Source: a virus (taxonomy: Duplodnaviria > Caudoviricetes). From it: DNA of 64,000 nt. Location: the IMG/VR virus record IMGVR_UViG_3300028591_000005, positions 81,978 through 145,977 of that record, one strand, 5' to 3'. The translations under genes and the position numbers were made by a program. Below the pieces are notes generated by a model. It had not been told where the DNA came from. It ran no database searches and saw only the letters and a program-made list of their open reading frames with translations. Below are positions 38,568-38,696 of this stretch, piece after piece. The stretch's first letter is position 1. Each line of letters begins with the position of its first letter.

Positions 38568-38696
38568 TACTGATGGCGGGACTCGAACCCGCACGGGATT
38601 TCTCCCAGCGGATTAATCTAGACACGAATTTACTAAATCTTGTTCAACTCATATCTAGGTTAAGTCCGCTGCGTCTACCAATTCCGCCACACCAGC
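38568..38696 (-). tRNA. tRNA-Leu(TAA) interrupted by a 45-nt hairpin insert
   Basis: Canonical Leu body; GCGGA-CT-TAA-[38615-38659]-AA-TCCGC. Confidence 0.85.

Follow-up and report, generated by a model that had tools for sequence, protein, structure and literature searches.

The sole tRNA-Leu(UAA) gene of this phage is split immediately after the anticodon, between nucleotides 36 and 37, by a 45-nt hairpin. Judging from the sequence, this insert is most likely a real intron, belonging to a recurrent class of short hairpin introns that would lie at 36/37 of phage tRNAs with U34, A37, and A38. Removal of the insert to yield a working tRNA seems probable, and, if it is indeed removed, an RNase III-type enzyme is somewhat favored as the agent of the cutting. 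The best explanation as a whole, namely that the insert is excised by host RNase III-type cutting and the tRNA then sealed by the phage's RNA ligase, we would put at a probability of roughly 45%; the cutting, the sealing, and the identity of the enzymes responsible are all steps that we infer.

The window, by which we mean the whole 64-kb stretch of DNA analyzed here, has a G+C content of ~33% and forms the final 64 kb of an IMG/VR virus record that is 145,977 bp long and carries direct terminal repeats. A tRNA cluster occupies 27.5–43 kb of the window on the minus strand. Within it, 38568-38696 (minus strand) gives a full-length match to the Rfam tRNA model (RF00005, 44.2 bits, model positions 1-71), the alignment being interrupted by a 48-nt gap in the anticodon loop. 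ARAGORN skips this gene at its default settings; with introns allowed, the gene is found but is typed as Ile(UAU), with the insert placed one base leftward. The gene and its surroundings comprise the following features:

38871..38899, minus strand: consensus sigma-70-type promoter (12/12), upstream of a 43-aa ORF and of the Leu gene
38660..38696, minus strand: 5' exon of tRNA-Leu(UAA), with acceptor strand, D arm, anticodon stem strand, C32 U33, and U34 A35 A36 (Rfam and alignment with the related gene L058)
38615..38659, minus strand: insert, candidate intron of 45 nt between nucleotides 36 and 37 (one 45-column gap against the Leu(UAA) genes of L058 and L057)
38568..38614, minus strand: 3' exon, with A37 A38, anticodon stem strand, long variable arm, T arm, acceptor strand, and A73

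The exons together supply an acceptor stem of 7 bp, a D arm bearing G18 G19, an anticodon stem of sequence GCGGA/UCCGC, the long variable arm, a T arm containing UUCGAGU, and A73; every stem pairs, and the conserved bases are kept. Because the body is that of a class II tRNA, with its long variable arm, and because position 73 is A, the gene is by its sequence a bacterial-type class II tRNA-Leu(UAA). It sits in a tRNA operon, downstream of the consensus promoter and the 43-aa ORF. The latter (38841..38710, minus strand) encodes a basic product without a Pfam match, has a strong ribosome-binding site, and places its stop codon inside a 7-bp hairpin directly before the first base of the tRNA-Leu.

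The phage genome has no Leu(UAA) gene other than the split one, and the codon that it would read is heavily used: UUA accounts for 46.5% of the phage's Leu codons and is the seventh commonest codon overall. The codons of the three split genes of this phage, AAU (Asn), GAU (Asp), and UUA (Leu), rank first, third, and seventh. Neither the Leu gene nor any other tRNA gene of the phage encodes CCA, and most of the trailers begin with T, so that the host must rely on endonucleolytic 3' trimming and a CCA-adding enzyme.

The placement of the insert follows from comparison with uninterrupted relatives. Ten related phage loci, 64–80% identical, were retrieved via the neighboring DUF2828 protein, and in L058, the closest relative found (gene at 8921-9005), as well as in L057, tRNA-Leu(UAA) is uninterrupted. 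Aligned with that of L058, the window gene shows its additional bases, exactly 45 of them, as a single block. Removing the insert leaves the anticodon UAA in a 7-nt loop, CUUAAAA, identical to the loop of the uninterrupted relatives and present as well in fifty other viral Leu(UAA) genes that match the D and anticodon stem sequence. Since only the removal of 38659..38615 restores CUUAAAA, the insert must be placed between A36 and A37. (Attempts to locate inserts with ARAGORN by brute-force deletion were too permissive to be of use.) The window gene and that of L058 differ by four double compensatory changes, spread over the D, variable, and T stems, which argues that the tRNA fold has been under selection along both lineages.

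The insert itself is a hairpin that is predicted to continue the anticodon stem. With the insert bases numbered i1 to i45, its elements are as follows:

38660..38663, minus strand: U33 U34 A35 A36, top strand of the junction box, with the putative 5' splice site after A36 (alignment and fold)
38646..38658, minus strand: 5' arm of the hairpin, i2-i14, 13 bp (folds)
38631..38645, minus strand: hairpin loop, i15-i29, 15 nt (fold)
38618..38630, minus strand: 3' arm of the hairpin, i30-i42, in which 3 of the 13 pairs are G.U on the tRNA strand only (fold)
38615..38617, minus strand: A, in a 1x1 mismatch opposite the C at i1, then UU pairing with A36 A35 (fold)
38613..38614, minus strand: A37 A38 paired with U34 U33, with the putative 3' splice site before A37 (alignment and fold)

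Moving outward from the tRNA body, the predicted fold thus consists of the 5-bp anticodon stem, a bulged C32, a 4-bp box (U33-A38, U34-A37, A35-U at i45, and A36-U at i44), the C.A mismatch, the 13-bp hairpin, and its 15-nt loop. Anticodon stem, box, and insert hairpin stack into a rod of ~22 bp in which the anticodon and U33 are wholly paired. The 62-nt arm formed by the anticodon stem and the insert folds at -24.7 kcal/mol (z = -6.5), and none of 200 shuffled sequences folds as well; its opposite strand folds at just -17.4 kcal/mol. The weaker fold of the complement arises because three of the 13 pairs break what would otherwise be a perfect palindrome in the DNA, all of them being G.U on the tRNA strand and A.C on the other. 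This asymmetry is modest evidence that the hairpin matters as RNA, on the tRNA strand. An earlier note on this DNA, made from the sequence alone, had described an otherwise perfect Leu tRNA carrying a 45-nt insert just 3' of its anticodon, a hairpin of about 13 bp with several G.U pairs, and TTAA on both sides that could extend the hairpin and hide the anticodon. All of these points are borne out: the tRNA by the Rfam match, the intact exons, and the L058 alignment, which also fixes the insert at 36/37; the hairpin by a fold of 13 bp with 3 G.U pairs; and the hidden anticodon by the UUAA/UUAA box in that fold.

Searches for further copies of this particular insert came back empty. It is absent from the relatives' whole records; a 17-mer spanning the 5' junction has no match in the viral contigs; and blastn-short with the insert gives nothing above chance in the rest of the phage genome or in the relatives' loci. 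A pattern combining the same anticodon stem with a 30–60-nt gap yields 95 matches in the viral contigs, mostly one conserved coding sequence and none in a tRNA context, while a longer pattern, run against metagenome contigs and 185,579 species genomes, returns only intact tRNAs followed by att-like repeats and no copy of the insert. Megablast and blastn against GenBank phages reveal no relative with both exons flanking an insert, and scans of the tRNA cluster for inverted repeats, promoters, and terminators uncover no family of similar hairpins. By sequence, then, the Leu insert is a singleton, carried by none of the orthologues found, which counts against the intron reading favored here. A 13-mer of its loop does recur, on the opposite strand, in paralogous HNH homing-endonuclease genes (window 16670-17557, minus strand, and 46174; G000 56689). 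This shared 13-mer was judged to be chance plus paralogy, its occurrence being about that expected by chance.

What recurs is the architecture. Viral contigs were scanned with patterns that fixed exon bases only (CUUAA and AAUCC, some of the anticodon stem, and the beginning of the T arm) and allowed either 16-32 or 33-60 free bases. These scans bring to light 8 further distinct phage tRNA-Leu(UAA) genes split at 36/37 by hairpins of 26–47 nt, which, together with tRNAs for Arg, Glu, and Lys and the window gene, make up a class of 12:

L164: Leu(UAA), insert of 26 nt (Rfam tRNA match spans the insert)
L166, 5928-6039: Leu(UAA), insert of 26 nt (Rfam tRNA match spans the insert)
L167: Leu(UAA), insert of 29 nt (Rfam tRNA match spans the insert)
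L168, 996-1107: Leu(UAA), insert of 26 nt (pattern scan and fold)
L169: Leu(UAA), insert of 28 nt (Rfam tRNA match spans the insert)
L176: Leu(UAA), insert of 39 nt (pattern scan and fold)
L179: Leu(UAA), insert of 47 nt (pattern scan and fold)
L180: Leu(UAA), insert of 40 nt (Rfam tRNA match spans the insert)
L168, 1305-1400: Arg(UCU) split at 36/37, insert of 24 nt ending in AG
L169, 1929-2027, minus strand: Glu(UUC) split at 36/37, insert of 28 nt ending in GA
L174, cut from the contig that holds L167: Lys(UUU) split at 36/37, insert of 27 nt ending in AA

The insert sequences are mutually unrelated, except that those of the Leu genes of L166 and L168 are homologous and those of L167 and L180 are alike at their ends. 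The window insert lies exactly at 36/37 of a tRNA with U33, U34, A37, and A38, as do the inserts of the 11 other genes, and in all 12 the pairs U33-A38 and U34-A37 can form. Every Leu(UAA) member folds alike, into a stem, a C32 bulge, a UUAA/UUAA box, and a hairpin. The last two bases of the insert, UU in 9/9 of the Leu(UAA) members, are complementary to anticodon nucleotides 35-36 in 12/12 genes, with four different anticodons. Because these terminal dinucleotides were not fixed by the patterns, and yet change with the anticodon, they amount to covariation across the splice junction; and because they pair with nucleotides 35-36, the splice sites are in every case offset by 2 bp across the helix. 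The inserts of L166 and L168 also differ by a compensatory change, U-A to C-G, at the first hairpin pair. At the pair adjoining the cut (i1 with n-2), 10 members are Watson-Crick and two depart from this, the window with C.A and L176 with U.C; a 1x1 mismatch occurs at the second pair from the box in L167, L169, L174, and L180. In L166 and L168, the hairpin beyond the box is only 3 bp long. Full-text literature searches turned up nothing on short hairpin introns in the tRNAs of phages or bacteria, so that hairpin introns at 36/37 with a 2-bp staggered junction would form a class for which we have found no published account.

Some further observations were made on these contigs. The 3' halves of the Leu inserts of L166 and L168 are complementary to the T stem and loop of their own tRNAs (UCGAACC with GGUUCGA in L166; UUGAGCCG with CGGUUCGA in L168), which could mean that the precursor has another way of pairing, or could be a vestige of how the insert arose. 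Another gene, L175 (G012 44835-44935, minus strand), has G73 and reads as a class I tRNA for Asn(GUU), split at 35/36 by a 28-nt hairpin; this hairpin, too, would have a 2-nt 3' overhang, with no continued helix on the exon side, and runs of A make the position of its junction ambiguous. Three tRNA-like genes of L168 (2338-2425, 4500-4610, and 4670-4772) share the acceptor stem AGTCAGG/CCTGACT and the T arm, and differ greatly in their long middles.

How might such an insert be removed? In the reading that we favor, the precursor would form a single helix out of the anticodon stem, the 4-bp box (U33-A38, U34-A37, nucleotide 35 with the last base of the insert, and nucleotide 36 with the penultimate), and the hairpin. 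The 5' cut would fall after nucleotide 36 and the 3' cut after the last insert base, the one paired with nucleotide 35; because the cuts would be 2 bp apart on opposite strands, both products would carry 2-nt 3' overhangs, a hallmark of RNase III-family cleavage. The tRNA body would keep the two exon halves together while an ATP-dependent RNA ligase joined them, giving an 84-nt tRNA-Leu(UAA) with the junction ...GGACUUAA followed by AAUCCGC..., which would then be trimmed and receive its CCA. The geometry, and the geometry only, matches that of an RNase III substrate: 5 + 4 + 13 bp (about two helical turns), with one bulge, one mismatch, and a 2-bp offset. On this predicted structure RNase III, whose cleavage the earlier note had suggested as a test, is the option that the geometry favors. 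Because the phage has no RNase III gene, the host's enzyme would do the cutting; nor is there such a gene in five other carriers of the class.

The phage does encode candidates for the later steps, and also one for an alternative cutter:

20343..21590, minus strand: ATP-dependent RNA ligase of the Rnl5 (Naegleria NgrRnl) type, candidate for the sealing step (Pfam RNA_ligase and PHA02142 OB domain; PDB 5cot, E 3e-35; PHROG RNA ligase)
18177..18701, minus strand: P-loop polynucleotide-kinase-like protein, candidate for 5' end healing (Pfam AAA_33; PHROG polynucleotide kinase)
17624..18184, minus strand: metallophosphoesterase, candidate for 3' end healing (Pfam Metallophos; PHROG phosphoesterase)
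14929..16191, minus strand: PIN-PhoH fusion, candidate RNA nuclease/helicase and alternative cutter (Pfam PIN_4 and PhoH)

The ligase is of the nick-sealing type rather than the anticodon-loop specialist Rnl1, a point against this scheme. Ends of the 3'-OH and 5'-phosphate kind are the substrates of Rnl-type ligases. Such ends are left by RNase III-family enzymes (review PMC8708148), and breaks of just this kind are joined by the Rnl5/NgrRnl family (PMC7261155); by analogy, the end chemistry of RNase III would fit the phage ligase. The co-occurrence of ligases with split tRNAs says little, because two relatives, G002 and G003, have RNA ligases and no split decoding tRNAs. The closest relative, G001, has neither, and among carriers of the class G011 encodes two ligases beside its split Leu gene, G012 has a weak match, and G014 has none.

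Other features, too, sit uneasily with cutting by RNase III. The window insert has C.A where most members have a Watson-Crick pair, as well as a bulged C32; the 3-bp hairpins of L166 and L168 are short for classical RNase III; and a kinase and a phosphoesterase would be superfluous after RNase III, their presence hinting at a cutter that leaves cyclic-phosphate and 5'-OH ends. Splicing by another cutter is an alternative to which we give perhaps a minority share of belief, and which comes in two variants. In one, a dedicated endonuclease of phage or host, for example the PIN-PhoH protein or some enzyme that recognizes the junction box, would leave 2',3'-cyclic phosphate and 5'-OH ends, which the phage kinase and phosphoesterase would heal before sealing. 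The kinase, phosphoesterase, ligase, and PIN-PhoH genes are indeed clustered at 14.9–21.6 kb, following a logic like that of T4 Pnkp/Rnl1 repair, and the 3-bp hairpins of some members suggest recognition of the junction box instead of a long duplex. Against this variant, the phage has no splicing-endonuclease (PF01974) or RtcB gene, and healing and sealing sets are common in phages as a defense against host anticodon nucleases. In the other variant, RNase P and RNase Z would act on the hairpin as on an acceptor/T-arm minihelix, in keeping with the host RNase Z-type trimming that is likely for phage tRNAs that lack CCA and have trailers starting with U, and with the tRNA shape of the Asn and Asp inserts in the same phage. 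Yet if RNase P cut ahead of the first paired base and RNase Z behind the first unpaired one, the loop would end up with 8-10 nt, not 7, however the C.A is counted; as every register leaves one to three surplus loop bases, the minihelix scheme was rejected. The Leu helix, moreover, has 13-14 bp and a 15-nt loop without a T-loop motif, as against 12 bp and 7 nt in a minihelix.

It is improbable, in our estimation, that the insert is a dead or neutral insertion, that is, a palindromic piece of DNA that landed recently in the anticodon loop, for instance in repair after attack by a homing endonuclease, with the host supplying tRNA-Leu(UAA). The insert is private to this phage genome, the gene of the closest relative is intact, the genome is rich in homing endonucleases (one of them inside tRNA-Asp), and the C.A mismatch occupies a position that most members keep Watson-Crick, all of which would suit such an accident. 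Random insertions would not, however, be expected to share the same junction geometry and covariation with 11 other genes on at least 8 other contigs. The exons, furthermore, have no damaging change, while the three changes within the hairpin are of the G.U kind only, and inactivation would mean that the phage has lost its tRNAs for three of its seven most used codons. Less probable still is a function for the unspliced RNA, whether as an anticodon-masked pro-tRNA (a nuclease-resistant pro-tRNA was the earlier note's other suggestion), as a decoy able to bind or withstand the anticodon nucleases of the host, or as a regulatory RNA resembling a tRNA. Counter-defense against anticodon nucleases is a role that tRNAs and repair enzymes have in phages, and one that would suit such a decoy; in the predicted fold the anticodon and U33 are wholly paired; and the same operon contains tRNA-shaped, apparently non-decoding RNAs of the Ro60-like ACAGCAA class. 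But the insert lacks the ACAGCAA motif, the split gene replaces rather than supplements the Leu(UAA) decoder of the relatives, and all members of the class keep the exact bases needed to rebuild a canonical 7-nt loop with an anticodon that fits the tRNA body.

Several known kinds of intron can be set aside. A group I intron or small ribozyme is ruled out by the length of 45 nt and by an Rfam search in which only tRNA was matched at E values up to 1. A bulge-helix-bulge intron is likewise ruled out: both splice sites lie within a continuous helix, 2 bp apart and without 3-nt bulges, and of several registers tried by hand none fits, the only irregularities being the C32 bulge and the C.A 1x1 mismatch. 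Among the phage proteins there is no match to PF01974 (EndA/Sen) or PF01139 (RtcB). Nor is the Leu insert a tRNA-shaped intron, such as those that interrupt two other genes of this phage:

41239-42161, minus strand: tRNA-Asp(GUC), split at 34/35 by an insert of ~850 nt that contains an HNH gene
42837-42969, minus strand: tRNA-Asn(GUU), split by an insert of 59 nt

These inserts are tRNA-shaped, with an acceptor-like stem at the start and a shared D-arm-like TAGTTTAAA..AAAC; they lie at 34/35 or 35/36 and form no helix with the exon side. The Leu insert is a single 13-bp stem with a 15-nt loop, lacking a T-loop motif and TAGTTTAAA..AAAC. (In Asp, the insert's terminal stem runs into AU, which likewise makes a 2-nt 3' overhang, with no helix formed on the exon side.) The earlier note was therefore right to see neither a group I intron nor a clean bulge-helix-bulge, as the size, the Rfam result, and the lack of any fitting register attest. 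Its proposal of a third protein-spliced intron using the same machinery as Asp and Asn holds in part: proteins must remove the insert if the tRNA is used, but shared machinery is not supported, the Leu insert being a plain hairpin at 36/37 and of a different, recurrent class. At most, the sealing step would be shared with the Asn and Asp inserts. The ATT that the note saw after the terminal stem of all three is there as DNA but does not stand as a common splice signal, for its three bases lie wholly within the insert in Leu, its last T is anticodon U35 in Asp, and one or two of its bases belong to the anticodon in Asn.

The Ro60-like (DUF2828) ACAGCAA module is also ruled out for the Leu insert, from which the motif is absent. 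A stem of ~7 bp followed by ACAGCAA, near a DUF2828 gene, marks 38156-38272 as well as about 20 tRNA-like genes in the relatives, and all other long tRNA matches (115-131 nt) in the DUF2828 relatives belong to this class. The tRNA-like 38156-38272 (minus strand; Rfam 49 bits) acquires a perfect arm, CGGCG-AUGGGGA-CGCCG, if 46 nt are removed between nucleotides 28 and 29, inside the anticodon stem; with C1-G72 and A73, it would on this sequence be a candidate tRNA-Pro(GGG). Its counterpart L052 6733-6847 likewise gives a candidate Pro(UGG), and L058 6721-6840 has a CAGCAAA loop without U33. Two other genes of the cluster are unusual. A tRNA-Gly(UCC) at 38491-38562 (minus strand), 5 nt downstream of the Leu gene, is detected by Rfam only (43.8 bits), is missed by ARAGORN, and has an atypical T loop (GGGGG-CAGAA-CCC region). 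The tRNA at 42270-42343 (minus strand) has an 8-nt anticodon loop, in which ARAGORN reads the four-base anticodon GAAA, and could be a Phe tRNA with an additional base or a +1 frameshift decoder.

The Leu insert can be placed against several well-studied systems. Archaeal and eukaryal tRNA introns are excised at a bulge-helix-bulge (two 3-nt bulges, 4 bp apart) by an EndA/Sen endonuclease, and the exons joined by RtcB or Trl1. Like the Leu insert, they are short, non-catalytic, and located in or by the anticodon loop, with the anticodon paired to the intron, and the logic of endonuclease plus ligase is the one proposed here; the Leu insert differs in lying at 36/37 rather than 37/38 and in a phage without an EndA or RtcB gene, and its cleavage would be expected to leave 3'-OH and 5'-phosphate rather than cyclic phosphate and 5'-OH ends. 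The group I intron of bacterial and plastid tRNA-Leu(UAA) is over 200 nt long, self-splicing, built on a P3-P8 core, and situated between U34 and A35. It interrupts the same tRNA species, also in the anticodon loop, whereas the Leu insert has 45 nt, lies at 36/37, and matches no Rfam intron. T4 Pnkp/Rnl1 mends anticodon-loop breaks made by PrrC, and there, as proposed here, a phage kinase, phosphoesterase, and ligase act on a tRNA that is broken in its anticodon loop and held together by its body; that repair, however, removes no sequence, and the ligase of the window phage is of the Rnl5 rather than the Rnl1 type.

Perhaps the closest likeness in form is to the intervening sequences of bacterial 23S/16S rRNA (e.g., in Salmonella and Coxiella), which are also extra, ribozyme-free hairpins in a loop of a stable RNA, variable in sequence and constant in having a stem, with a host double-strand RNA nuclease cutting at the base of that stem, as we propose for the Leu insert. 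Those of 23S rRNA are excised by RNase III without rejoining (PMC4990558; PMC8708148). The rRNA pieces work unjoined, whereas a tRNA cut in its anticodon loop needs resealing; in addition, the stem of the Leu insert includes the anticodon, and the positions of its proposed cuts are exact to the base. In our literature searches, comparable inserts came up in print only once, as the tRNA introns of Lak megaphages that are called “enigmatic” (Devoto et al., 2019; PMC6784885, Table S6). These, too, are non-ribozyme inserts in the anticodon loop of phage tRNAs, without a known mechanism; the example shown (Tyr), however, has 93 nt and a tRNA-like T arm, so that they resemble the Asn and Asp inserts of this phage and not the Leu hairpin.

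To our knowledge, the published picture is that tRNA introns of bacteria and phages are self-splicing group I introns, enzyme-driven tRNA splicing being the province of archaea and eukaryotes. We would tentatively entertain a wider reading, in which protein-driven tRNA splicing also occurs in bacteria and phages, by means of a double-strand-specific endonuclease (RNase III or a relative), cutting at a junction box that takes in the anticodon, and an ATP-dependent ligase. The introns concerned would be ribozyme-free hairpins placed after the anticodon of U34 tRNAs, with the window's Leu insert among the largest of them. If this is true, bacterial cells or phages would be able to cut and rejoin tRNAs, RNase III and the widespread phage RNA ligases would gain a new role, and one would have an explanation for tRNA genes that standard finders miss or mis-call, as ARAGORN does here.
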